Shown: positions 1,738 to 63,886 of the stretch, piece by piece
Numbering within the stretch: position 1 is the first letter of the stretch
How the letters are laid out: the number at the start of each line of letters is the position of its first letter
Source: an uncultured bacterium
GTDB taxonomy: Bacteria > Patescibacteriota > Minisyncoccia > UBA6257 > 2-01-FULL-56-20
Assembly: GCA_963807165.1 (NCBI GenBank)
Contig: CAWDZM010000001.1
Span: 119,963-183,962, forward strand
Length of the DNA stretch: 64,000 nucleotides
Reading direction: 5' to 3'
Position numbers and translations under genes: made by a program
Notes under the pieces: generated by a model
Databases searched by the model: none
What the model was told of the DNA's origin: nothing
The model's input: the letters and a program-made list of their open reading frames with translations, nothing else

Positions 1738-2019
1738 GCCGTTGTAGCTCAGCTGGTAGAGCAACTCCATGGTGGACTCACAGAGTCATGCCCACGGAAG
1801 GGGAAACCCTTCTGCGAACCCCGAATTACGGTCAAAGGCCAGGAATGGCAGAGACCGTGGCGAAGATGCGAATAGCGCGTGATTCGCCCGAACGACTGAC
1901 AAGGGACGCTGCGCCGTACAAGCGGTATGCGTAAGATACAGTCTAATCCTCATATAAGCATCGCGAAGGTGAGGTATCAATGAAGGAGTAGGTCGCCGGT
2001 TCAATTCCGGCCAACGGCT
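1738..2019 (+). tRNA. tRNA-Thr(GGT) interrupted by a group I intron (exons 1738..1773 and 1983..2019)
   Basis: Acceptor GCCGTTG/CAACGGC, D-arm GCTCAGCTGGTAGAGC, anticodon stem ACTCC/GGAGT, T-arm GCCGGTTCAATTCCGGC; the anticodon loop ATGGT|AA is split after anticodon position 36 by a 209-nt insert. Confidence 0.6.
1774..1982 (+). ncRNA. group I self-splicing intron (small, ORF-less) in tRNA-Thr(GGT)
   Basis: 5' exon ends in U and the intron ends in G; the intron GUCAUG can pair with exon CAUGGU (P1 with a U-G wobble at the splice site); a GAAA-tetraloop hairpin (P2), an ACGGUC/GACCGU stem (P4), a P7-like GACUG/CAGUC pairing and the core-like string AAGAUACAGUCUAAUCC are all present; 209 nt is the size class of the Azoarcus tRNA-Ile intron. 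Confidence 0.55.
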
Positions 2020-2023
2020 CACT

Positions 2024-2110
2024 CGCAGACAGCAAAAATCCCTATCGCTATTTCGCTCCGACGTAAGCACGTCCACTCGCTCAATAGCAATAGGGATTTT
2101 TGCTGTCTGC
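2024..2110 (+). repeat. long hairpin (28-bp stem) carrying the conserved core TCGCTCCGACGTAAGCACGTCCACTCGCTCAA in its loop; copy 1 of a 4-copy family; terminator-like
   Basis: Inverted repeat cagacagcaaaaatccctatcgctatt / aatagcaatagggatttttgctgtctg; the core is shared with 44722..44800, 51181..51247 and 58842..58897. Confidence 0.7.
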
Positions 2111-13235: not shown

Positions 13236-14000
13236 ATGGGCAAGTTGATAGTGGCGAACTGGAAGGAGCATCCAAAGACGGCGGCGCACGCGCTTACGCT
13301 TTTTAAGGCTGTGGCAAAGACGCCACGCGCGAGTGGCGGCGAAGTGGTGGTCTGCCCACCGTTCATCTACTTAGAAGAAGTGGCACGCGAGTTCAAGCGT
13401 ATGCCGGTCGCCGCTCGCGCGCGCCTCGCGCTTGGCGCACAGGATGTGTTTTGGGAAGACGCGGGCGCGTATACCGGCGAAGTTGGTCCCGCGATGCTGC
13501 GCTCGCTCGGTGCAAAGTACGTGATCATTGGTCACTCGGAGCGCCGCCGGTTCGAAAAGGAAACGGATGCGATGATCAATAAAAAGATCGCGCTCGCCGC
13601 CCACGACGGCCTGAAAATAATTTTGTGCGTTGGCGAACCGCTTTCGGTGCGCGAGAAGGGAGCAGAGATCGCAAAGAAGTTCGTGGCACAACAGCTAGCG
13701 AAGGATTTAAATAATATTTCATTAAAAAAACCTGGGGATTTTTACGTTGCATACGAACCGATATGGGCGATCGGCACGGGGAAGAACGACACGCCGGAGG
13801 ATGCGCGCGAGATGGCGATGTTCATTAAATCTCTATTAAAGAAAACCAAGCGTATTTCGCCAAAATTTCTTTACGGCGGTTCGGTGAATGGCAGGAACGC
13901 GCGCGATTATGTACAATTGGATGTAATAGATGGGGCGCTCGTGGGAGGCGCGAGTCTCAAGGCCGATGAGTTCAAAAAAATAATTAATACTATCAAATAA
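13236..14000 (+). CDS. tpiA: triosephosphate isomerase
   Basis: LIVANWKEHPKT, IIGHSERRR (GHSERR signature), AYEPIWAIGTGK. Confidence 0.9.
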   Translation: MGKLIVANWKEHPKTAAHALTLFKAVAKTPRASGGEVVVCPPFIYLEEVAREFKRMPVAARARLALGAQDVFWEDAGAYTGEVGPAMLRSLGAKYVIIGHSERRRFEKETDAMINKKIALAAHDGLKIILCVGEPLSVREKGAEIAKKFVAQQLAKDLNNISLKKPGDFYVAYEPIWAIGTGKNDTPEDAREMAMFIKSLLKKTKRISPKFLYGGSVNGRNARDYVQLDVIDGALVGGASLKADEFKKIINTIK

Positions 14001-15398: not shown

Positions 15399-15480
15399 CC
15401 TGGAGGCACTACCACATCCTTTTCTGACCGTTGCGTCTGGGCACTAGATCAGAAAAGGATGTGGTAGTGCCTCCAGAGGA
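15399..15480. terminator. long perfect hairpin (28-bp stem) downstream of the gtrA-like gene
   Basis: ctggaggcactaccacatccttttctga / tcagaaaaggatgtggtagtgcctccag. Confidence 0.6.
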
Positions 15481-15519
15481 TACCCCTTGCTTTTTCTTAA
15501 ACAACTTGCTATAATACTC

Positions 15520-15617
15520 TCGAATGGGTGCGAGTATAGCTCAACGATGATATCGACTGAGCTATAACCCACACGATTCTGTTTGGCTAAGGCCGCCCGC
15601 AAGGGCGGTTTTAGTTT
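15520..15617 (+). ncRNA. candidate small RNA with its own -10 box and intrinsic terminator
   Basis: TATAAT at 15508-15513; internal inverted repeat gtatagctca/tgagctatac; ends with GCCGCCCgcaaGGGCGGTTTT; no ORF. Confidence 0.25.
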
Positions 15618-15619
15618 CG

Positions 15620-15718
15620 AAAACCTCTGATTTTTGGCTGCGCCTTCATTTTGCCTCGTCATCGTATGGAAATACGATTCCTCGGCAAAATTCGGCTCGC
15701 CTAAAAATCAGAGGTTTT
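15620..15718. repeat. 18-bp inverted repeat enclosing a structured ~63-nt loop
   Basis: aaacctctgatttttgg ... ccaaaaatcagaggttt arms. Confidence 0.4.
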
Positions 15719-15752
15719 ATATATTAGATAGATATATAACAATGCCTTTTGA

Positions 15753-15775
15753 TTTAATATATTTTTAATGTCGGT
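15753..15775 (+). promoter_or_regulatory. 23-nt motif TTTAATATATTTTTAATGTCGGT (identical copy at 23909..23931), 18 nt upstream of an ATG
   Basis: Exact 23/23 identity between the two sites; both are preceded by a long hairpin and followed at the same spacing by a start codon. Confidence 0.45.
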
Positions 15776-15792
15776 CTGCTATATTGCAGTGA

Positions 15793-15921
15793 TGGAATAT
15801 TATCCGATGCCAAGTTTATATAAAGAAGATACCCCGGAAGAAAGCTGGGAGGTAGTTATTGATGTTACCGAGATAGAAAAAGAAGGCATTACCATCACAG
15901 ATCTGCTCTCTCGTTTATAAT
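15793..15921 (+). CDS. hypothetical small protein (42 aa)
   Basis: MEYYPMPSLYKEDTPEESWEVVIDVTEIEKEGITITDLLSRL, located just downstream of the shared motif. Confidence 0.25.
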
Positions 15922-16102
15922 CGTTTTACCTTGCGATACCTATTTGCTATACTACTCATGGAGTGGCTGATTGAGCACTCGTTCAATACAAACAGAACCG
16001 GAGGTCACCACAGCCGCTCCGCCCAGCACTTTGAGCACGTTTGTTAGAGTCTTGGGCGGAGCGGTTTTTGTTTGCGAAAAATATCATCTAATCATTTTAT
16101 TA

Positions 16103-17559: not shown

Positions 17560-17631
17560 AATGCCAGCAAAGAAAAAGAAAGTTGTGAAGAAAGCAGCAA
17601 AGAAGACCGCGAAGAAGAAGAGCCGCGTATA
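17560..17631 (+). CDS. very small Lys-rich basic peptide (23 aa) with its own terminator
   Basis: MPAKKKKVVKKAAKKTAKKKSRV; upstream TATACT -10; downstream hairpin acacctcggcaatcgccggggtgt followed by a T-run (17640-17675). Confidence 0.3.
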
Positions 17632-17698
17632 GTCTTCCAAAAACACCTCGGCAATCGCCGGGGTGTTTTTTATTTCCGCAATCATTTATAATCGTGGA

Positions 17699-20398
17699 AT
17701 GCTTGAAGGAATCAAAAAAATATTCCAAAAGCGCTCGCTCGTGGCGCTGGAGGAAAAAGTTAAGGAAATCAATGCGTCGGAACCCGCGCTTGCGGCGCTC
17801 TCGAACGAGGAATTGACCGCAAAAAGCCTGGCATTACGGGAGCGGGCAAAGGCAAACGCGCAGGCGGGTGGTCAGGAAAGGGCACTCGATGAGGTTGCCG
17901 TAGAAGCGTTCGCGCTTGTGCGCGAAGCGGCGAAGCGCACGCTCGGCCAGCGCCCCTTCGATGTGCAGTTGCTTGGCGGACTCGTGCTCCATCGCGGCGC
18001 TGTTGCCGAGATGATGACCGGAGAAGGCAAGACGCTCGCCGGCGTCGCGCCGGCATACTTGAACGCACTCGCGGGCAAGGGCGTGCACGTCGTCACCGTC
18101 AACGAATATCTTTCCCGGCGCGACGCCGTGTGGATGGGAAAGATCTATCGCTTACTCGGACTCACCGTCGGATCGATCATCCCGGGTGCGGCGTTCGTCT
18201 ACGATCCGGAATGGGAGATCCCGAAGGCCGACGAGGCCGCAGAAGAAAAGAAAGTGGAGACCACCGGAAGTTTTTTGGTGCAACAGGAATTTTTGCGGCC
18301 GGTTTCGCGGCGCGATGCGTACAAGGCGGACATCACCTACGGCACCAACCACGAATTCGGTTTTGACTATCTGCGCGACAACTTGGTCTATCGCATTGAG
18401 GATCGCGTCCAGCGCGGCCACAACTTTGCCATTATCGACGAGGTGGACAGCATATTAATAGACGAGGCCCGGACACCGCTCATCATCGCCGCGCCGGACG
18501 CCCAGTCGAGCGACTTTTATAAGGCATTTGCCCGGATCGCGACCAATCTGGAAAAAGACGCGGATTACGAGGTTGATGAGAAGAAGAAATCCATCACGAT
18601 CACCGACGCAGGCGTGGAAAAGGTAGAGAAGCTGATTGGCGTGCAAAATATCTACGCGCCAGAGAATATTCGCCTCGTCCACTATATGGAAGAGAGCGTT
18701 AAGGCAAAGGCTCTTTTTACCCGCGATAAGGATTACGTGGTAAAGAATGGGGAGGTATATATAGTAGACGAGTTCACCGGGCGCTTGCTTGTCGGCCGGC
18801 GCTATCAGGCGGGATTACATCAAGCGATCGAAGCAAAGGAGGGCGTGAACGTCCAACAGGAGTCGCGCACCTATGCGAAGGTTTCCATCCAAAACTATTT
18901 CCGCATGTACGCGAAAATTTCCGGTATGACGGGAACAGCGCAGACGTCGGCTGAGGAATTTTTTAAAGTATATAAATTGGAAGTGGAAAGCATTCCGCCG
19001 AACCGCGGGTTGGCGCGCAAAGATTTGAACGATCTTATTTATAAAAACTTTGGTGCAAAGCTGAATGCGATCGCGGCGGATGTTAAGGAGCGGCAGAAAA
19101 AAGGCCAGCCGGTGCTGCTTGGCACAACTTCTATTGCTAAGAATGAACTGATCAGCGCGGCGCTCTCGCAGGCGGGGATTCAGCACGAGGTATTGAACGC
19201 AAAGAACAACGAGCGCGAAGGCGCGATCATCGCACAGGCGGGGCATTCCGGCGCGGTGACGGTGGCGACGAACGTCGCCGGGCGTGGAGTGGATATTCTG
19301 CTTGGCGGCAACCCGCCGGACGCGGCGGAGGCAGAGAAGGTGCGCGGACTCGGCGGCCTCCACGTGATCGGCACCGATCGCCACGAGGCGCGGCGCATCG
19401 ACAACCAGCTACGCGGCCGCGCCGGACGCCAAGGCGATCCTGGCTCATCGCAATTCTTCCTTTCGCTCGATGACGATTTACTCCGCATCTTTGGCGGCGA
19501 CCGCATCAAAGGCATGATGGAGCGTTTTGATCTTCCGGAAAACGAGCCTATCGAGTTTGGTATGGTCACAAAGGCCGTCGAACAGGCGCAGGAAAAAGTG
19601 GAGGGCGCAAACTTCGATATGCGCAAACATCTTCTTGAATACGACGATGTGCTGAATCGTCAGCGTAGTGCTGTCTATAAACGCCGCGCGGAGTTTTTGG
19701 AATTGGCAGATAAGGAGCTGATCGCTGGCGTCATTGCCGATGCGGCGATCGCGCACTTTACCGCGGCGATCGCGCCGGGCTTTGCGCAATTCGGCGCCGA
19801 GCGCGAAGCGGCAGTTGCGGAAGCGAGCAAGGCGTTTAAGGAAGCGGGGATTGCCATGGATGTTGAGGCACTTCATACCGAAGATGATTTCATCCAAGCT
19901 ATCCGCGAAAAGAGCGCCGTCGTTGCCGAACACGCGCTTATCAAAAATCAGATCATTGGAATCCTCGACATGCTGTGGATGACGAACCTGGAGGATCTTG
20001 AAGCGGTGCAGGAAGCCGTCGGCCTCCGCGCATATGCTCAGCATGATCCGCTCGTCGAATACCGACACGAGGCAAGCGTCCTGTTCAAAAATTTCTGGGG
20101 AAATTTCAACGCATGGATATTCAATAACATGTTCAAGCTGGCGGCGCAGGTGCCGCAGGGCGGGGGAGCGACAGGCGCGAGTGCGTCAGGCAATGCCGGT
20201 GGCGCTGCTACGTTCGGTTTGAATATCCCTACCGCCACGCCTGCGAGCGAGATGGGCTCTGGGCCGAAGATCGGGCGCAACGACCCGTGCCCGTGCGGCA
20301 GCAAGAAAAAATGGAAGCATTGCGGGCTTTTGAATACCGAAGAACATCAGATGAATATGGCGCAGGGCGGGGCAAAACACGAGGTTTCTGGGGGATAA
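17699..20398 (+). CDS. secA: preprotein translocase ATPase SecA
   Basis: MLEGIKKIFQKRSLVALEEKV..., Walker A MTGEGKTL, DEAD-like motifs, C-terminal zinc finger CPCGSKKKWKHCG. Confidence 0.9.
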   Translation: MLEGIKKIFQKRSLVALEEKVKEINASEPALAALSNEELTAKSLALRERAKANAQAGGQERALDEVAVEAFALVREAAKRTLGQRPFDVQLLGGLVLHRGAVAEMMTGEGKTLAGVAPAYLNALAGKGVHVVTVNEYLSRRDAVWMGKIYRLLGLTVGSIIPGAAFVYDPEWEIPKADEAAEEKKVETTGSFLVQQEFLRPVSRRDAYKADITYGTNHEFGFDYLRDNLVYRIEDRVQRGHNFAIIDEVDSILIDEARTPLIIAAPDAQSSDFYKAFARIATNLEKDADYEVDEKKKSITITDAGVEKVEKLIGVQNIYAPENIRLVHYMEESVKAKALFTRDKDYVVKNGEVYIVDEFTGRLLVGRRYQAGLHQAIEAKEGVNVQQESRTYAKVSIQNYFRMYAKISGMTGTAQTSAEEFFKVYKLEVESIPPNRGLARKDLNDLIYKNFGAKLNAIAADVKERQKKGQPVLLGTTSIAKNELISAALSQAGIQHEVLNAKNNEREGAIIAQAGHSGAVTVATNVAGRGVDILLGGNPPDAAEAEKVRGLGGLHVIGTDRHEARRIDNQLRGRAGRQGDPGSSQFFLSLDDDLLRIFGGDRIKGMMERFDLPENEPIEFGMVTKAVEQAQEKVEGANFDMRKHLLEYDDVLNRQRSAVYKRRAEFLELADKELIAGVIADAAIAHFTAAIAPGFAQFGAEREAAVAEASKAFKEAGIAMDVEALHTEDDFIQAIREKSAVVAEHALIKNQIIGILDMLWMTNLEDLEAVQEAVGLRAYAQHDPLVEYRHEASVLFKNFWGNFNAWIFNNMFKLAAQVPQGGGATGASASGNAGGAATFGLNIPTATPASEMGSGPKIGRNDPCPCGSKKKWKHCGLLNTEEHQMNMAQGGAKHEVSGG

Positions 20399-23761: not shown

Positions 23762-23880
23762 CCACATACTAGGAGCATGCCCTTTGAGGGTATCGCGGAG
23801 CCGCGAAGGCGGCGAGCGTAAGGGACCGCGCAGCAGCGCGGAACCCGTCCCTCAAGGGGTATGCTCCTGGTATGTGGGTG
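23762..23880. repeat. long hairpin (29-bp stem, ~57-nt GC-rich loop) between the FKBP and response-regulator genes
   Basis: ccacatactaggagcatgccctttgaggg ... ccctcaaggggtatgctcctggtatgtgg. Confidence 0.55.
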
Positions 23881-23908
23881 GTTTTCTTTATCTTTTCTTG
23901 ATAATTTA

Positions 23909-23931
23909 TTTAATATATTTTTAATGTCGGT
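23909..23931 (+). promoter_or_regulatory. second copy of the 23-nt motif TTTAATATATTTTTAATGTCGGT, 17 nt upstream of the response-regulator ATG
   Basis: Exact repeat of 15753..15775. Confidence 0.45.
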
Positions 23932-23947
23932 AGTGTATGGTGGAGGT

Positions 23948-24622
23948 ATGAAAATCTTATTAATCGAGGACGAGCGGGAGATAGCGCATTTTATTATTAA
24001 TGGGCTCAAGGCGGAGCACTTCACGGTCGATTGGGCGGAGGGCGGTGCGAAAGGGCTTATGTGGGCAAAGGTCAATCCATATGATCTTGCGATTATCGAC
24101 ATCAATCTCGGCAACAACGAAAACGGTATCGATATTTGCGGAGAGATTCGCGCGAAGGGCAGAATGTTTCCGATCATTATGCTTTCGGTGGTGAATGACG
24201 CGCACACCAAGATCGAGGCGCTGAACATCGGCGCGGATGATTATCTTACTAAGCCATTTTTTGTGGCGGAGCTCCTTGCCCGCGTCCGCGCGCTTTTGCG
24301 CCGTGAGAAGAAGCTGATCGGGCCAAAGCTCATCATCGCTGACCTTGTGATGGACACGCTCGCGCACACCGTTAGGCGCGCGGGAGTGGAGATCAAGCTG
24401 AACCGCAAGGAGTTCACCTTGCTGGAATATTTTATGCGCAACGCCGGTACTACGCTTACGCGTGGCATGATCCTTGAACACGTGTGGGATATTAACGCCG
24501 ACCCGTTTACCAACACGGTGGACGTGCACGTGCGCTTCCTCCGCGCAAAGATAGACGAAGGGCACGAACAAAAACTTATCAAAACGGTGCATGGATATGG
24601 TTACAGAATCGAAGGTGTATAA
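23948..24622 (+). CDS. OmpR-family response regulator
   Basis: Receiver domain MKILLIEDEREIA...LAIIDINLG...; C-terminal winged helix ...TVHGYGYRIE. Confidence 0.85.
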   Translation: MKILLIEDEREIAHFIINGLKAEHFTVDWAEGGAKGLMWAKVNPYDLAIIDINLGNNENGIDICGEIRAKGRMFPIIMLSVVNDAHTKIEALNIGADDYLTKPFFVAELLARVRALLRREKKLIGPKLIIADLVMDTLAHTVRRAGVEIKLNRKEFTLLEYFMRNAGTTLTRGMILEHVWDINADPFTNTVDVHVRFLRAKIDEGHEQKLIKTVHGYGYRIEGV

Positions 24623-24632
24623 TAGAGAAACC

Positions 24633-27086
24633 ATGACTAACCAAAAATCATCTCTTCCAACCACATTTGTCGTGCTCGGCGTTACGGGCGATCTTATGAC
24701 CAAAAAGATCGCGCCTGCGCTTTTTAATCTGCACGAAAAAGGCCTGTTGCCGCCGCACTTTCGCCTGGTGGGCGTCTCGCGCCGCGACTGGACGGACGAT
24801 GACCTGAAGCGTCACATTCAGGCAATTTTGGAGGTGCGGGTAAAGAACGCCTCGCCAGCGTCCGTCGCATCGTTTTTGAAGACCGTTGTCTATCACAAGA
24901 TCACGTTCGATGCGTTTGCGGATTACGTGGCGCTCGGCGATGCGCTCAAGAAAATCGACGACGAACACGGCGCGTGCTCGAACAAGCTCTTCTATCTTTC
25001 TGTGCCGCCACAGTTCTACGACATGATCTTTACGAACATCCACAAGGCGCGGCTGACGGAGCTATGCGATGCATCGACGGGCGGTTGGACGCGCGTGGTG
25101 GTGGAGAAGCCATTTGGCAGTGATGAGAAGAGCGCGAAGGCGCTCGACGAACGCATTGCGCGGCTATTCAAAGAAGAGCAGGTGTATCGCATTGATCATT
25201 ATTTGGCGAAGGAGACGTTGCAGAATATTTTGACATTCCGGTTCCTTAACAATCTTTTTGAAGATAATTGGGGACGCGATCTGATCGAAAAGATTTATGT
25301 GCGCGAACTGGAGAACGTGGGCGCGGAGGATCGCGGGCCTTTTTATGAAAGCGTCGGCGCTCTGCGTGACGTCGGCCAGAATCATCTGCTCGAGATGATC
25401 GCGCTTATTGCGATGGATCAACCACACGACATGAGCGCCGACGCGATCCGTGCCGCGCGCGCGGCGGTGCTCGAAACGATCAAGCCGATTACGCCATCCG
25501 AAATGTCTAAAAAAACATTCCGCGCGCAGTACGATGGCTATCGCGCTATTAAAGGTGTGGATCCCAAGTCCGGCGTGGAAACGTATTTCAAGCTTGCACT
25601 CCAGCTGACACATCCGCGCTGGCAGGGCGTGCCAATATTTATAGAGGCAGGCAAGCGCATCATCGACCCCAAGCGCAACGAGGAGGTGACGGAGATCGAG
25701 GTGGTGTTCAAGCACGAGACTCCGTGTCTCTGTGCGCTCTACGGCGCCGGTGCGCCGGGCGCGAACGTGCCGATGCACTTCAAGAACTCCATCACATTCC
25801 GGCAGGATCCGCATGAGAGCATTACGATCCGCTTCTGGGCAAAGAAGCCGGGGATCGGCATGGAAATGGAAGAGCGCGTATTCAACGTGGATCTCCGCCA
25901 GGGTGAGCGCAAGTCGCAGTACACGGAAGAGTACGAAAAGCTCTTGCTCGATTGCATCAACGGCGACCAAACACTTTTCGTCTCGAGCCGCGAGGTCGCC
26001 GCAATGTGGCACTTCGTTGATCCCATTGTAAGGGGATGGGCGAAGGGTCTTGTGCCGCTCCGGCGCTACGCGCCGGATAGCGAAGCCGTTGTTGTTGAAG
26101 CGGCGACGTTGCTTGAGCCGCCGGAGAGCGCTACGGAAAAAGGCGCGGGCGCACGTGACAGAATCCGCAAAGAGATCGGTATCTTTGGTCTCGGCAAGAT
26201 GGGCGCAAACGTCGCACGGCAGTTGCACGAAAAGGGCTGGCGCGTCGTCGCATCCAACCGTTCGCCCGGGCCGGTGGAGATGATCCAAAAAGAGGGTATT
26301 CAGGGCGTGTTCACGCATTCGGAACTTGTGGCAGAGTTGAAATCGCCACGCATTATCTGGCTGATGATCACCGCCGGAAAGGGGAACGATGATCTGCTTT
26401 TTGGTAAAGATGGCATCGTGCAACATTTAAAGAAGGGCGATATCGTTATTGATGCCGCGAATGCATTTTACGAGGACTCCGTGCGCCGCGCAAAGCTGCT
26501 CAAAAAGCGCGGCATCCATTTTATGGACGTCGGATTTTCCGGTGGGCCGTCGGGCGCGCGCAACGGCGGATCACTCATGATCGGCGGCGAGCGCGAAATA
26601 TTCCAGCGCTTGGAGCCGCTCTTCCGCGACCTCTCCGTGCCGGGCGGCTATTCGTACTTCGGTTCCGCCGGCGCCGGCCACTTCGTAAAGATGGTGCACA
26701 ACGGCATCGAGTACGGCATGATGCAATCGCTCGCGGAAGGTTTTGCCATTATGAAAAAATCGCCGTTCAAGCTGGATCTCGAACAGGTGGCGAACGTTTA
26801 CAACCAAGGTAGCGTCATCGAGTCGCGCCTCGTGGGATGGTTGGAAGATGCGTATAAGCTCTACGGCCAGGATCTCAAGACCGTTTCCGGTTCCGTCGCG
26901 TACACCGGAGAAGGCGAGTGGACGGTCAAGACTGGCAAAAAATTAAAAGTGCCCGTGCCCGTTATTGAGGACTCGTTCAAGTTCCGCGTCCGCTCAAAGA
27001 AGTCGCCGAGCTATATCGGGAAGGTGTTGTCCGCGCTGCGAAATCGGTTTGGGGGGCATGCGATAGATCAGGGGAAGGGAAAATAG
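24633..27086 (+). CDS. zwf-gnd: fusion protein: glucose-6-phosphate 1-dehydrogenase (Zwf) N-terminal half plus short-form 6-phosphogluconate dehydrogenase (Gnd/YqeC-like) C-terminal half
   Basis: N-terminal VLGVTGDLMTKKIAPALFNL...RIDHYLAKE (G6PD motifs); C-terminal IGIFGLGKMGANVARQL...GSAGAGHFVKMVHNGIEYGMMQ (6PGDH NAD-binding and signature); one continuous 831-aa ORF; alternative start at 24591. Confidence 0.75.
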   Translation: MTNQKSSLPTTFVVLGVTGDLMTKKIAPALFNLHEKGLLPPHFRLVGVSRRDWTDDDLKRHIQAILEVRVKNASPASVASFLKTVVYHKITFDAFADYVALGDALKKIDDEHGACSNKLFYLSVPPQFYDMIFTNIHKARLTELCDASTGGWTRVVVEKPFGSDEKSAKALDERIARLFKEEQVYRIDHYLAKETLQNILTFRFLNNLFEDNWGRDLIEKIYVRELENVGAEDRGPFYESVGALRDVGQNHLLEMIALIAMDQPHDMSADAIRAARAAVLETIKPITPSEMSKKTFRAQYDGYRAIKGVDPKSGVETYFKLALQLTHPRWQGVPIFIEAGKRIIDPKRNEEVTEIEVVFKHETPCLCALYGAGAPGANVPMHFKNSITFRQDPHESITIRFWAKKPGIGMEMEERVFNVDLRQGERKSQYTEEYEKLLLDCINGDQTLFVSSREVAAMWHFVDPIVRGWAKGLVPLRRYAPDSEAVVVEAATLLEPPESATEKGAGARDRIRKEIGIFGLGKMGANVARQLHEKGWRVVASNRSPGPVEMIQKEGIQGVFTHSELVAELKSPRIIWLMITAGKGNDDLLFGKDGIVQHLKKGDIVIDAANAFYEDSVRRAKLLKKRGIHFMDVGFSGGPSGARNGGSLMIGGEREIFQRLEPLFRDLSVPGGYSYFGSAGAGHFVKMVHNGIEYGMMQSLAEGFAIMKKSPFKLDLEQVANVYNQGSVIESRLVGWLEDAYKLYGQDLKTVSGSVAYTGEGEWTVKTGKKLKVPVPVIEDSFKFRVRSKKSPSYIGKVLSALRNRFGGHAIDQGKGK

Positions 27087-27608: not shown

Positions 27609-27880
27609 ACGGAAATAAGAGAGCTCCCTTATTGTTTTATGTCTTTTTTGCATCATTAATGGATATATGACACGTGATATACGGAAGAAATAAATAATCT
27701 TGCCAAACAAACTGCTGATATCAATGGAAGTCAAAATTATGAAGAGACATTAGGAATATCCAAAAAATATTAAAAGGGGTAATCGTCCCGATTTCAAAGG
27801 GTTAGGATGTTTAAATATTAAATCCCCCATTTTGACCAGTTTATGACCATGGACACCCAAAATCTCTGAAATAGCGTATA

Positions 27881-29257: not shown

Positions 29258-29351
29258 CGTGAAACATTACACCATGCCGTCTATCGTTGCCGGGCGCCTC
29301 ATCGGCACCTGGCAATTTTTTTAGAAACTTTTAACAGCGGCACGGGGTATA

Positions 29352-35610: not shown

Positions 35611-35657
35611 AAAGTCGAAAAAATAAAAAGATTAAAAAATTATTAAATAAAAAAAAT

Positions 35658-44721: not shown

Positions 44722-44800
44722 TAAATAAAATAGGGATAGGTGTTGAGCGAGTGGACGTTCTTACGTCGGAGTGAAATATCTATCCCTATTTTATTTTTGG
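44722..44800. repeat. hairpin carrying the conserved core (copy 3, reverse orientation); bidirectional terminator between convergent genes
   Basis: aaaatagggatag...GAGCGAGTGGACGTTCTTACGTCGGAG...ctatccctatttt; overlaps the stop of the minus-strand dsbB-like gene. Confidence 0.7.
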
Positions 44801-50517: not shown

Positions 50518-51180
50518 ATGCACACCATACAACAAAAACTGTTAGCGCTGGCGGAAAAGAAAAACTTGGGTAACTTCACCCTGCGGGAGATTGGTGGGTT
50601 CGTGGGCGAGACGTCGCCACAGAAGATAAAACATCACCTTCAACAGCTTGAGAAGCGGGGATTCATTCATATCAATAAAATGGAACACACAATAAAAACC
50701 ACAAAACAGCAGGGCCCGACGGTAAAAGGGATACTAGGAAATGCCAAACTGCTTTCCATCCCGATTCTTGGATCAGCCAACGCCGGCCCGGCAATGGTCT
50801 TCGCCGCCTCAAATATCGAGGGCTATCTCCGCGTTTCGAGCTCTCTCGTCGCACGACCTCGATTGTCGCACCGGCTGTTTGCCCTTAAGGTGGATGGCCC
50901 GTCCATGAATATGGCGTACGTTGGTGGGAAGAAGATCGATAATGGGGATTATGTGATCATCGACAGCGAAGACCGGGAAGCGATGAATGATGATATTGTG
51001 CTTTCCGTTATTGATGGAATGGCAAACATCAAAAAATATTATGTTGATAAGGAAAATAACCAGATCCTTCTCATGTCCGAATCCACGCACGATTTCCCGG
51101 CGATCCACATCCATGAGAATGATGATTTTTCAATCAACGGCAAAGTGGTGGGCGTGATCAAGACACCGAAGAAGAAATAA
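50518..51180 (+). CDS. lexA: LexA-family repressor (wHTH plus S24 peptidase)
   Basis: N-terminal wHTH; cleavage-site-like ANAG; VDGPSMNMAY (Ser nucleophile) and ...MANIKKYY (Lys). Confidence 0.7.
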   Translation: MHTIQQKLLALAEKKNLGNFTLREIGGFVGETSPQKIKHHLQQLEKRGFIHINKMEHTIKTTKQQGPTVKGILGNAKLLSIPILGSANAGPAMVFAASNIEGYLRVSSSLVARPRLSHRLFALKVDGPSMNMAYVGGKKIDNGDYVIIDSEDREAMNDDIVLSVIDGMANIKKYYVDKENNQILLMSESTHDFPAIHIHENDDFSINGKVVGVIKTPKKK

Positions 51181-51247
51181 AAACACCCCTAGCTATTTCG
51201 CTCCAGCGTAGGAACGCCCACTCGCTCAATAGCTAGGGGTGTTTTTA
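51181..51247 (+). repeat. hairpin carrying the conserved core (copy 2) with T-run; terminator after lexA
   Basis: aaaacacccctagctattTCGCTCCAGCGTAGGAACGCCCACTCGCTCAATAGCtaggggtgttttt. Confidence 0.7.
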
Positions 51248-57476: not shown

Positions 57477-58190
57477 TTAACGAAAAAATTCTACCACGCC
57501 TTGGGTCCATCCGGCAATGCGGCGGTTCAGCGAGATGCTTGATCGCACCCTGATTCGTATGACACCGAAATAAGTATCATCGATATTTTTTCGATTAGTT
57601 TTTATATTAGCTTTTTTGAAATAGATACGAGAAAAATAATCCGGGGCAATTCCAATTTTCTCTGACCAAAAATCGATTATTTGTTTTACGCGATGCCGGT
57701 GGGTATCGTGAATATAGATTTCAAAAATGAGCTCAGTGTTATCGATATAGCAAACATCTTTAAGCCAGCGGAGAAATAAGCAAATCATGGTCGGATCCAT
57801 ATTGGTAAATTGGACTCCCGAGCCCGGGCGATACTCTTTTTCTTTTGATCCTTCTGCCCAATAGAGCATAGTTCCCATAAGCCATAATTCTCGATTGCTT
57901 ATTGGACCGATCTCAGATTTCGCAATATCCATAATTGCTTTTGTTCTATCGAGGCGTTGCTGGTGTTTTGCAGCACCACCACGCTTTGCTGATGCCAGCT
58001 TCTTTTCAGTCAATCGCTGTTTTTGATGTTTTGACAATCCAACGCTATGAAGCCAATCCGATAGTGTTGATTTGGCAATAGGTACCTTTTTTAATATTTC
58101 CGTATATGAGAGCCCATTTTTGCGCAATATAATAGCCTTTTCTTTTATAAGATATGTTTCATATTTAGCGTTGTAGTAGTAAGTATGCAC
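57477..58190 (-). CDS. hypothetical HTH-domain protein, paralog of 556..1191; stop lies 9 nt before the 5' end of tRNA-Gln on the same strand
   Basis: LSYTEILKKVPIAKSTLSDWL (HTH); LYWAEGSK, NMDPTMICLFLRWLK and IYIHDTHRHR are collinear with the other copy. Confidence 0.5.
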   Translation of the reverse strand: MHTYYYNAKYETYLIKEKAIILRKNGLSYTEILKKVPIAKSTLSDWLHSVGLSKHQKQRLTEKKLASAKRGGAAKHQQRLDRTKAIMDIAKSEIGPISNRELWLMGTMLYWAEGSKEKEYRPGSGVQFTNMDPTMICLFLRWLKDVCYIDNTELIFEIYIHDTHRHRVKQIIDFWSEKIGIAPDYFSRIYFKKANIKTNRKNIDDTYFGVIRIRVRSSISLNRRIAGWTQGVVEFFR

Positions 58191-58225
58191 ATCTCACATT
58201 AAAAATATGTTAAAATAATCTTGAC

Positions 58226-58841: not shown

Positions 58842-58897
58842 CTTGAGCGAGTGGACGTTCTTACGTTGGAGCGAGGGGGTCTTAGCTATATTTTTTT
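58842..58897. repeat. hairpin carrying the conserved core (copy 4, reverse orientation); bidirectional terminator between sodA and fmt
   Basis: tagctaacaccctTGAGCGAGTGGACGTTCTTACGTTGGAGCGAgggggtcttagcta. Confidence 0.65.
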
Positions 58898-60525: not shown

Positions 60526-60728
60526 AGGTCTATTTTAGCGCATTTGATGATTATTGGCGACTTTTATTTAAGATAGTTTTAATGGTGAAATTGTTATGGT
60601 GGTGTGAAAATGATGGATTTTATCAACTCAAAAAAGGAGCACATATTTTTAGACCAGAGAAGGGGTGATCCTCCCATCGAGCACCGCTCTTTTAGCTTTT
60701 AATGATTTTTTAATAAGTTAATGTTAAA

Positions 60729-62057
60729 ATGAATTCCATGACAAAAGAGCTCAAAAAGAAGATCTTAGGGATCATTGCGATCGTATTGCTCGGATGCGTA
60801 ATCTTGGGAAGCGGTGCATGGATTGGATGGACGGCGGGAAGGAGATATCCGGAAAATATCGTGGTAAGCGATGCAACGAACATCACCCCCGATGCCTCCA
60901 CGACGACAGCCGACTTCAGCACATTTTGGGCGGCATGGCAGGATATTAATAACGATTCACTCTGGACGCCGAGCACGACGCCAACGGAACGGATGTATGG
61001 CGCGATCAGCGGTATGGTGGGATCGCTCGGTGATCCATACACGGAATTTTTCTCGCCTGCGGATAGTAGCCAGTTCACGCAGGACATTACCGGCAATTTC
61101 GGCGGCATCGGCGCGGAGCTTGGCGAGAATAGCAGCACAGAGATCGTCGTCATTTCGGCGATCAGCAGTACGCCCGCGTTTGCGGCGGGATTAAAGCCGG
61201 AGGATGTCATCACTTCTATCAATGGAAGTTCTACTGCGAATATGAATATCGATAATGCAGTGAACTTGATCCGTGGAACGGTGGGCACAAATGTGACGCT
61301 TGGCATCTTGCGCAACGGCTGGAGTGCGCCAAAAAACTTTACGATTACCCGCGCAGATATTCAGGTGCCAACGGTGGAATTTTCTATGAAGGGCGATATC
61401 GCAGACATCCAGCTGAATGAATTCACGCAGGATGCGGACGATCTTTTCTATAAAGCGCTTCAAAATGCAGTGAATGCCAATGCAAAAGGGATCGTGCTGG
61501 ATCTTCGTGGCGATCCGGGAGGATATTTGCAGGTTGCCGTGGATATCTCCGGATATTTCCTTAAGCCAGGTTCTCCGGTGGTAAAAGAAGTAGGACGCAC
61601 GGTGCCGGAGCAGGATTATACGGCGAGCGGTAGTGGCGCGTTGGGTACTATGCCGATGGCGATTTTGATCGATGGCGGTTCTGCGTCCGCGGCGGAGATC
61701 CTTTCGGGAGCGTTGAATGATGATCGTAATGTTCCGTTGGTCGGTGCAAAGAGTTTTGGAAAGGGGACGGTTCAACAGCTCGAGGATCTTCCGGACGGTT
61801 CATCGCTTAAGATAACCGTGGCGCATTGGGTGTTGCCATCGGGACGCATTTTGGATCACGACGGTCTGTTGCCGAACTATCCGGTGGCTATCACCGATGC
61901 ACAGATCGCGGCCGGGCAGGATCCTCAGCTCACGAAGGCATTACAGATTGTGACGGATGAGATCAACGGCACGCCGTTGCCTCCATCGGCAGATACGAGT
62001 GCCGCAGCGGCAGCGGCTGCCACGGCGGCGGCAAACGCAAGCAGTAGCGCACAATGA
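60729..62057 (+). CDS. ctpA: C-terminal processing peptidase (S41 family) with PDZ domain
   Basis: N-terminal TM; PDZ (GGIGAELG...[29 protein letters not shown]); S41 motifs LDLRGDPGG and FGKGTVQ. Confidence 0.8.
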
Positions 62058-63051: not shown

Positions 63052-63108
63052 AAGATAATTAAATAGTGATTAAATGTTATTTCAAACGTCATTCCATTTT
63101 ATGGTAGA

Positions 63109-63837: not shown

Positions 63838-63886
63838 CGCCGGCGATTTTAGATAATTTTAATGCGCTGCGTGGTAGTATTTTGGG

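Follow-up and report, generated by a model that had tools for sequence, protein, structure and literature searches.

The closest described counterparts of the element reported here are two operator types, each read by a response regulator. The pmra-box of PmrA/BasR (Salmonella, Klebsiella, E. coli) has the consensus XTTAAY-N5-XTTAAY and overlaps the -35 region (PMC10570014), and the Pho boxes of E. coli consist of 8-bp units in tandem, joined by an A/T-rich linker of 3 bp and placed 10 bp upstream of the -10 (PMC1906773); the PhoB site of pstS extends from -41 to -25 (PMC10570014). We describe a site of similar build, the direct repeat TTTAAT-N5-TTTAAT (below, the box), in a 64-kb stretch of DNA (the window, meaning the whole stretch analysed) from an uncultivated bacterium of the Paceibacterota, within the Candidate Phyla Radiation (CPR). 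The nearest named relatives of its SecA belong to Candidatus Paceibacterota, and the SecA itself is 100% identical to a protein on a 726-kb NCBI/ENA contig. The box precedes the gene of an orphan response regulator of the OmpR/PhoB family and a number of other genes, and it probably serves this regulator as an autoregulatory and regulon site at the -35 position of leaderless promoters. The type of switch is an ordinary one, here in a lineage in which gene regulation has hardly been studied. For CPR/Patescibacteria as a whole, the control of transcription is essentially uncharted, and our literature searches on CPR promoters and regulators returned nothing relevant. What is gained is a cis-element of defined geometry, a named candidate regulator and a first candidate regulon.

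The element came to attention through a 23-nt sequence that is found exactly twice in the window, at 15753-15775 and 23909-23931. The original prediction had noted the two identical copies, and the identity in fact extends to 24 nt (ATTTAATATATTTTTAATGTCGGT; 15752-15775 and 23908-23931, both on the + strand), as an A precedes both. No further match to the 23-mer with up to 3 mismatches was found in the window, nor any in 100 dinucleotide-preserving shuffles. The copies are direct repeats 8156 bp apart, and their downstream genes are as first described: a 42-codon open reading frame before murB-hpf, and the OmpR-type response regulator. The distance to the ATG (15792 and 23948) had been given as 17-18 nt but is exactly 16 nt at both, made up in the same way of 4 nt, a -10-like hexamer and 6 nt. 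At copy 1, with its box TTTAAT-ATATT-TTTAAT at 15753-15769, the hexamer is TATATT (15780-15785, +), preceded by TGC and thus part of an extended -10 (TGCTATATT, 15777-15785); at copy 2, with its box at 23909-23925, it is a weak TATGGT (23936-23941, +) with no TGn extension. Each hexamer lies 10 nt past the box and 6 nt before the ATG, a leaderless layout that leaves no room for the untranslated region of the promoter cassette proposed earlier as an alternative. An in-frame ATG inside the motif (15768 and 23924, eight codons upstream of the annotated ATG in both copies) was considered as the real start and rejected: among the contigs and loci of relatives that we compared with the window, coded L001, L003 and so on, L002 has a stop codon within the extended frame, and in L003 the extension falls in another frame. 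A sigma-70 promoter made of TATATT inside the box and ATAACA as its -35 can be drawn at copy 1 and was also rejected; copy 2 has no matching -35, so it is not shared. Rfam gave no family at either copy, only meaningless matches of miRNA precursors to the long hairpins nearby.

The core of both copies is a direct repeat with an 11-bp period, readable also as two 8-bp TTTAATRT repeats with a T-rich 3-bp linker. TTTAAT-N5-TTTAAT has 8 matches in the window against 0.02 expected from shuffles, the other spacings from N0 to N15 have 0-1 matches each, and in a ranking of the direct repeats of all 4096 hexamers at spacings N0-N12 it comes first. A peak confined to N5 is present around secA in relatives as well, with 9 against 0 at SecA identities of at least 84% and 10 at 63-82%, and is not seen around secA in relatives with SecA identity below 63%. 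The element is therefore specific to a spacing and to a clade, which indicates base-specific reading by a tandem dimer and not generic AT-richness. The box ends 10 nt before the -10, with half-sites ending 10 and 21 bp from it, so that neither TTTAAT stands at the 16-18 bp of a sigma-70 -35 hexamer; the hexamers found at that spacing are ATATAT-like. Nor does a box at about -39 to -23, with its hexamers at one exact spacing, behave as an UP element. What it does resemble is an OmpR/PhoB-type site, with two direct half-sites about 10-11 bp from centre to centre, here with an 11-bp period, which replaces or overlaps the -35 about 10 bp from the -10, the ctpA orthologs discussed below being exceptions. 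We consider it very probable that the box is a spacing-specific protein-binding promoter element. The abundance in non-promoter contexts that would have marked it as a simple AT-rich repeat was not found in the 64 kb.

Each of the 15 orthologous loci examined (response-regulator identity 64-93%) has the box upstream of the response-regulator gene, as is expected of an autoregulation site. Ten of the sequences, covering the same range of 64-93%, form our promoter alignment, and the five orthologs added to it (L101, L111, L199, L200 and L201) agree with it. The invariant columns of the 10 sequences are TT.A in the first half-site, TT.TTAATGT in the second half-site and the next two bases, and A and T in the -10; the N5 spacer, the upstream flank and 4-6 nt on the way from box to -10 are variable, the distance from box to -10 being 10-11 nt throughout. 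L007 has CTTAAT-N5-CTTAAT, and L012 and L201 have TTTTAG-N5-TTTAAT. The -10 is kept as TATGGT or TATTGT in close relatives, and such a weak -10, without TGn and without any -35 hexamer, fits an activator-dependent promoter. Two further half-site-like hexamers, TTTATC (23887-23892, +) and TTGATA (23898-23903, +), are in phase with the box, 22 and 11 bp upstream of it, and are kept in close relatives; the pair may form a second, weaker box. The gene order TIM-SIMPL-GtrA-[small RNA]-MurB-HPF-SecA-...-FKBP-response regulator-(G6PD/6PGD)-PGI is conserved.

The regulator itself (23948-24622, +) has the receiver and the winged-helix DNA-binding domain of its family (Pfam Response_reg and Trans_reg_C), with the receiver residues Asp51 and Lys102 present, and its best solved relatives are DrrD, PhoP, RegX3 and PcoR. 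Orthologs make up more than 100 protein clusters at an identity of at least 66% in the class. The recognition helix, TNTVDVH(V/I)RFLR, is invariant across orthologs, and so is the longer segment of turn and helix, LTR.MILEHVWD.NADPFTNTVDVH.RFLR, from the window to an ortholog of 64% identity, while the receiver domain diverges; the lineages that keep the helix are the same ones that keep the box. In K. pneumoniae PmrA, residues T187, N188 and V192 contact the TAA of the half-site (PMC10570014). A gapless alignment places T188, N189 and V193 of our regulator at these positions and R196 at that of PmrA H195, so that the helix is compatible with a TTAA-containing half-site. The gene that follows starts 11 nt after the stop codon of the regulator gene and, as an 831-aa gene, had been taken for a sensor kinase, a candidate rejected once Pfam identified it as a G6PD-6PGD fusion (24633-27086, +; 818 aa); the response regulator is thus an orphan. 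The fusion is found also in L200, is called as separate genes in L199 and is followed by a bacterial-type PGI gene; it is probably co-transcribed with the regulator gene from the box promoter. As a separate observation, the PGI promoter (about 27850-27880, +) has a distinct conserved block of its own, CACCCAAAA.CCCTCAAATAGCG, directly before the TATAAT; the block is common to at least 5 relatives and may be the site of another factor.

Other promoters of the window repeat the arrangement. Perfect boxes precede a homing-endonuclease-like gene with its ATG at 580 (TTTAAT-CATTT-TTTAAT at 539-555, +; 10 nt, TATCTA) and the S41 peptidase (ctpA)-rplI operon (TTTAAT-GATTT-TTTAAT at 60698-60714, +; 10 nt, TAAAAT, 7 nt, ATG at 60738). 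Variants stand at 60567-60583 (TTTAAG-ATAGT-TTTAAT, +; 11 nt, TATGGT), before a 30-codon open reading frame (60610-60702) upstream of ctpA and kept in L202; at 63847-63863 (TTTTAG-ATAAT-TTTAAT, +; 11 nt, TAGTAT, 6 nt), before the GTG of a small membrane protein and kept, with its geometry of 10-11 nt, in L202, L203 and L204; at 2331-2347 (TTTTAG-ATAGT-TTTAAT, -; 11 nt, TACACT), upstream of a 24-codon hydrophobic open reading frame (2175-2249); and, as a weak box, at 29319-29335 (TTTTAG-AAACT-TTTAAC, +; 12 nt, TATAAT), before the gene of a 126-aa protein (p126). A near-copy, TTTAAC-ATATT-TTTAAT-GTGAGA at 58198-58214 (-), precedes a homing-endonuclease-like paralog (57477-58190), is kept in L202 and overlaps the -10 of the divergent sodA promoter. 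A distance of 10-11 nt from box to -10 holds at 15753, 23909, 539, 60698, 60567, 63847 and 2347 and is found again in L099, L129 and at the murB promoters of L051 and L012, two distant relatives in which a perfect TTTAAT-N5-TTTAAT, followed by 10 nt and TATACT, sits directly on murB. The box also occurs at a helix-turn-helix (HTH) gene in other genomes. With spacers that vary, the box is kept at orthologous positions in 4 lineages at 63847, 4 at ctpA, 6 at p126 and 2 at the homing-endonuclease-like gene. At p126, L001, L003, L004 and L045 have the second half-site TTTAAT 11 nt from TATAAT, and L007, with CTTAAT-N5-CTTGAT, uses CTTAAT half-sites here as it does before the response-regulator gene. 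Upstream of ctpA, L203 has a perfect box and L204 one with a single mismatch, at other distances to the -10.

Three of the open reading frames behind boxes are tiny, encoding a hydrophobic peptide of 24 aa (2175-2249, -), a peptide of 30 aa (60610-60702, +) and a membrane protein of about 50 aa (from 63887, +). Feedback on two-component systems is a typical role of small membrane peptides, and it is a matter of speculation whether these have such a role. A further observation concerns the homing-endonuclease-like paralogs (580-1191 and 57477-58190), which are 27% identical and are both preceded by the same flank, box plus GTGAG(T)GTGC (539-579; 58175-58214, -); an identical flank, GTGAGTGTGCTA, is found before a non-homologous 188-aa gene in L084 and L154. 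These flanks suggest that modules of promoter sequence travel along with accessory genes or pass from one to another.

The explanation that we favour, at a probability of about 0.55, is that the box is the autoregulatory and regulon site of the orphan response regulator, placed at the -35 position of leaderless promoters. A head-to-tail dimer of the phosphorylated regulator would bind the two half-sites; the site, which covers about -39 to -23 and leaves 10 bp to the -10, would stand in for the -35, and the bound dimer would recruit RNA polymerase by class II activation, as at pmra-box and Pho-box promoters. The first transcribed base would be the A of the ATG or a neighbour of it, 6 nt past the -10, and the mRNA would be leaderless. 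At 23909 the outcome would be positive autoregulation of the regulator gene, probably together with the co-transcribed G6PD-6PGD gene, and at 15753 the box would drive the remnant of a Phd/ParE insert, with a transcript that can run on into murB-hpf. That it is this regulator that binds the box we hold to be somewhat better than an even bet. Of the original prediction, a shared operator such as the autoregulatory site of the response regulator, the operator holds up in outline, being a direct repeat that ends 10 bp from the -10 and is invariant in 15 response-regulator loci, while the regulator as binder, the activation and the position of the transcription start are what we infer.

TTTAAT-N5-TTTAAT agrees exactly with the pmra-box consensus, and PmrA likewise has a site before its own operon, pmrCAB. 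The regulator is not an ortholog of PmrA/BasR, however, its DNA-binding domain scoring 36 bits to BasR against 77 to PcoR and about 70 to M. tuberculosis PhoP, and the candidate targets (the regulator gene with zwf-gnd, ctpA, small peptides and selfish genes) are unrelated to lipopolysaccharide modification; a CPR host, the lack of an adjoining kinase gene and leaderless promoters set it further apart. Pho boxes, read by PhoB in E. coli and by SphR in cyanobacteria, share the 11-bp period, the division into 8 bp and a 3-bp linker and the distance of 10 bp to the -10, and the -41 to -25 of the pstS site is close to the -39 to -23 of the box. The cyanobacterial half-site CTTAACCT resembles CTTAATCT in L007, and the two-component genes of Pho systems are autoregulated, as is proposed here. 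On the other hand, no pst, pho or phosphatase gene is among the candidate targets in the window, the half-site differs from the CTGTCATA of E. coli, and the regulator is an orphan beside pentose-phosphate-pathway genes. To judge from this comparison, the box appears to work like pmra- and Pho-box sites; it is a member of neither regulon, the regulator not being orthologous and the targets being different.

A number of observations weigh against the explanation that we favour. The link between regulator and box is drawn from an architecture typical of the family and from the site at the regulator's own promoter, and the T-N-x-x-x-V signature of the helix is common in the family, PcoR included, and so does not discriminate. 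The scan for boxes covered the 64-kb window, 9% of the genome. At the ctpA orthologs, the distance from box to -10 is 10, 16, 28 and 38 nt; at rpmA (63058-63074), the second TTTAAT seems to act as the -10 itself; the perfect box at 35631-35647 has no gene in matching orientation; and a perfect antisense TTTAAT-N5-TTTAAT (13824-13840, -) lies inside the TIM gene (13236-14000). In the last case, the half-sites are kept and the N5 varies in L001, L003, L006, L007, L034, L045, L199 and L200, which may reflect coding constraint (I-K-x-L-L-K) or an internal site.

The remaining difficulties lead to the explanation that survives best as a competitor, one that is possible though clearly less probable. 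The box would be real but be read by another tandem transcription factor, by the two alpha C-terminal domains of RNA polymerase as a displaced UP-like element, or through intrinsic curvature from its phased T tracts, and it would mark a strong promoter class also used by selfish genes. Counting the variants, about 9 promoters in 64 kb carry the box, many for the regulon of one response regulator; the genes behind it are heterogeneous (antitoxins, homing-endonuclease-like genes, the HTH gene in other genomes), and the selfish ones among them could reflect a mobile promoter type; four phased T-rich hexamers extend over 44 bp at the response-regulator promoter; and no kinase partner is visible, with no H-box motif in the window and no adjoining kinase gene in three large contigs. 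Exact hexamers at a single spacing (8 against 0-1), however, argue for base-specific reading and not for curvature alone, and -39 to -23 is not the position of an UP element (-40 to -60). Moreover, the most conserved box, and the one nearest to the consensus, is found in 15 lineages at the gene of the response regulator itself, the classic mark of autoregulation, and its hexamer-N5-hexamer form equals the pmra-box consensus XTTAAY-N5-XTTAAY (PMC10570014). Rather unlikely, in our view, is a bolder account in which the orphan regulator is a near-global regulator in reduced Paceibacterota genomes, acting on its own operon and the oxidative pentose-phosphate genes, on ctpA, in some lineages on murB-hpf, and on tiny membrane peptides, with selfish genes plugging in via a copied autoregulatory promoter that is kept identical, neutral flank bases included, by repeated copying or gene conversion.

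What copy 1 does is best understood from the history of its locus. The spacer between GtrA and murB always contains a conserved small RNA gene, and its content downstream of that gene is variable: L001 and L004 have nothing there, L006 has a hairpin element, L045 a peptidase gene and L003 a box promoter followed by a Phd/YefM-ParE toxin-antitoxin cassette (Pfam matches at or just below the family cut-offs). The 42-codon open reading frame behind copy 1 (15792-15920, +) is a C-terminal remnant of a Phd/YefM-type antitoxin. It shares 45-50% identity with the C-terminal end of the L003 antitoxin and has in common with L003 the sequence just past the ATG, and the left half of the cassette operator (CAAGTTTAT) survives at about 15810-15818. 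The window thus carries the L003 insertion in a deleted form; a toxin-antitoxin insertion with copy 1 is found only in these two. In L003, the cassette has its own promoter, TTGACG-17-TAAACT, and a palindromic operator, AAGTTTATCTTTAGATAAACTT, downstream of the box, and the same promoter and operator occur without the box in L047. The box promoter is therefore an extra, upstream one, and we rejected it as the cassette's own. For the same reason the box is not a type II toxin-antitoxin operator, even though the gene behind copy 1 is an antitoxin gene, which L003 has intact and the window in truncated form: the box is a direct repeat common to genes outside toxin-antitoxin systems, and the palindromic operator is separate. 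Copy 1 is thus not a conserved murB element, since it belongs to the insertion and drives the truncated antitoxin frame, while murB (TTG start at 15971) has retained its own promoter. No terminator was found between 15920 and murB, which makes read-through from copy 1 into murB-hpf plausible. The earlier suggestion that the murB-region transcript is a regulon member would hold directly for L012 and L051, with the box on the murB promoter; in this genome the link is indirect.

The function of the box covers about 20 of the 24 identical nt (ATTTAATATATTTTTAATGT); the last four, CGGT, fall in a block that is variable among response-regulator orthologs. In three genomes, the flank of the antitoxin copy equals that of the response-regulator copy in the same genome (CGGT in the window, GCATA in L003, GCG in L099/L101), and the other boxes of these genomes differ in both N5 and flank. 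Flanks that match within genomes and vary between orthologs point to recent copying or gene conversion between the two promoters, and the shared CGGT is best explained in this way and not by function. The view of all 23 bases as a shared operator is thereby cut down to the part that the box accounts for. The concerted flanks of response-regulator and antitoxin promoters make promoter copying in a minimal genome accessible to study on a small scale.

One may go further and take the 24-nt identity as mainly historical, a promoter segment duplicated or gene-converted, with copy 1 the promoter of a decaying selfish element that has no present regulatory role. Copy 1 is indeed missing from the orthologous spacer in L001, L004, L006, L045, L034 and L007, it drives only a 42-codon antitoxin remnant, and the flank after the box tracks the response-regulator copy of its own genome while differing freely between orthologs. 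Such a history accounts for the additional identical bases and leaves out the box, whose conservation and spacing specificity do not depend on the pair; the promoter of copy 1 is also intact (box, extended -10 and ATG), nothing terminates transcription between it and murB-hpf, and the boxes on murB in L012 and L051 indicate that box control of murB-hpf recurs. As the full account it is improbable; it is compatible with the box as a site of the response regulator and does not exclude it. Hardly credible, finally, is a pair of att-like or dif-like sites bounding an 8.2-kb mobile segment, or a chance AT-rich repeat: the copies are direct repeats 8156 bp apart, and the left part, ATTTAAYATA, may faintly resemble the XerD arm of dif, but the murB-hpf-secA-...-FKBP order is kept in relatives without copy 1, a synteny that rules out an 8-kb island as well as a site of dif/Xer type, and there is no gene for a recombinase in the vicinity. 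The shuffles exclude chance, and where unrelated AT-rich genomes contain the same 18-mer, this is background noise. That 18-mer, TTAATATATTTTTAATGT, was searched for in species-representative genomes; among the matches listed, most come from AT-rich genomes of unrelated phyla, and at least 8 Paceibacterota-like loci were usable.

The leaderless layout is not confined to promoters with a box. TGnTAnnnT or TATAAT followed by 6-7 nt and a start codon is frequent in the window, as read from the sequence at the genes starting at 1285, 13236, 17083, 17699 (secA, 17699-20398, +), 20465, 22792, 47490, 60738 and 63109, and the transcription starts at these promoters would be placed by the layout. Most of the leaderless promoters in the window are without the box, which is therefore no general feature of promoters; a TTGACA -35 of the usual kind is present at some of them, and ordinary TTGACA-17-(-10) promoters are present elsewhere in the window. 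A full-text literature search on leaderless promoters in Patescibacteria found no paper, and evidence that this organism makes common use of leaderless promoters with an extended -10 is a gain in itself.

Both copies had been described as lying just downstream of long perfect hairpins. The one before copy 1 (15400-15476) is perfect, with 28-nt arms, but lies about 275 nt upstream, with the small RNA gene and an imperfect hairpin (15620-15718) in between. At 23762-23880 (+), there is no perfect DNA palindrome but a 119-nt element built of an outer stem of 29 bp around two small hairpins, a three-way junction predicted for the + strand RNA (-88 kcal/mol, z = -10.6), where G.U pairs make the + strand the stronger one; it stands between the FKBP terminator and the response-regulator promoter, where relatives carry different hairpins. 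The imperfect hairpin (+), past the small RNA terminator, is about 100 nt long with 25-nt arms of 84% complementarity, is found in the window and L006 (6085-6190) and not in other relatives, and may be a small mobile element. The small RNA gene between GtrA and murB (15521-15618, +; about 95 nt) has an extended -10 (TGCTATAAT, 15509-15517) and an intrinsic terminator; it matches no Rfam family and is kept in 10 relatives, with 11 base pairs that show compensatory changes and an invariant single-stranded CACGAUUCUGUUUGGCU.

Three features elsewhere in the window may be added. At about 1745-2030 (+), tRNA-like halves (acceptor GCCGTTG...CAACGGC, D and T arms) are recognizable by eye, parted at the anticodon loop by an insert a few hundred nt in length; ARAGORN and Rfam report no tRNA or group I intron there. 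Between hpf and secA there is a 23-codon lysine-rich open reading frame (MPAKKKKVVKKAAKKTAKKKSRV; 17562-17633, +) with its own TGTTATACT promoter. Long hairpins at the 3' ends of genes (2034-2101, 44743-44774, 51179-51246 and 58843-58874) form a family that combines variable outer stems with a conserved inner core, TTGAGCGAGTGGACGT.CTTACGTCGGAGCGA, in either orientation.

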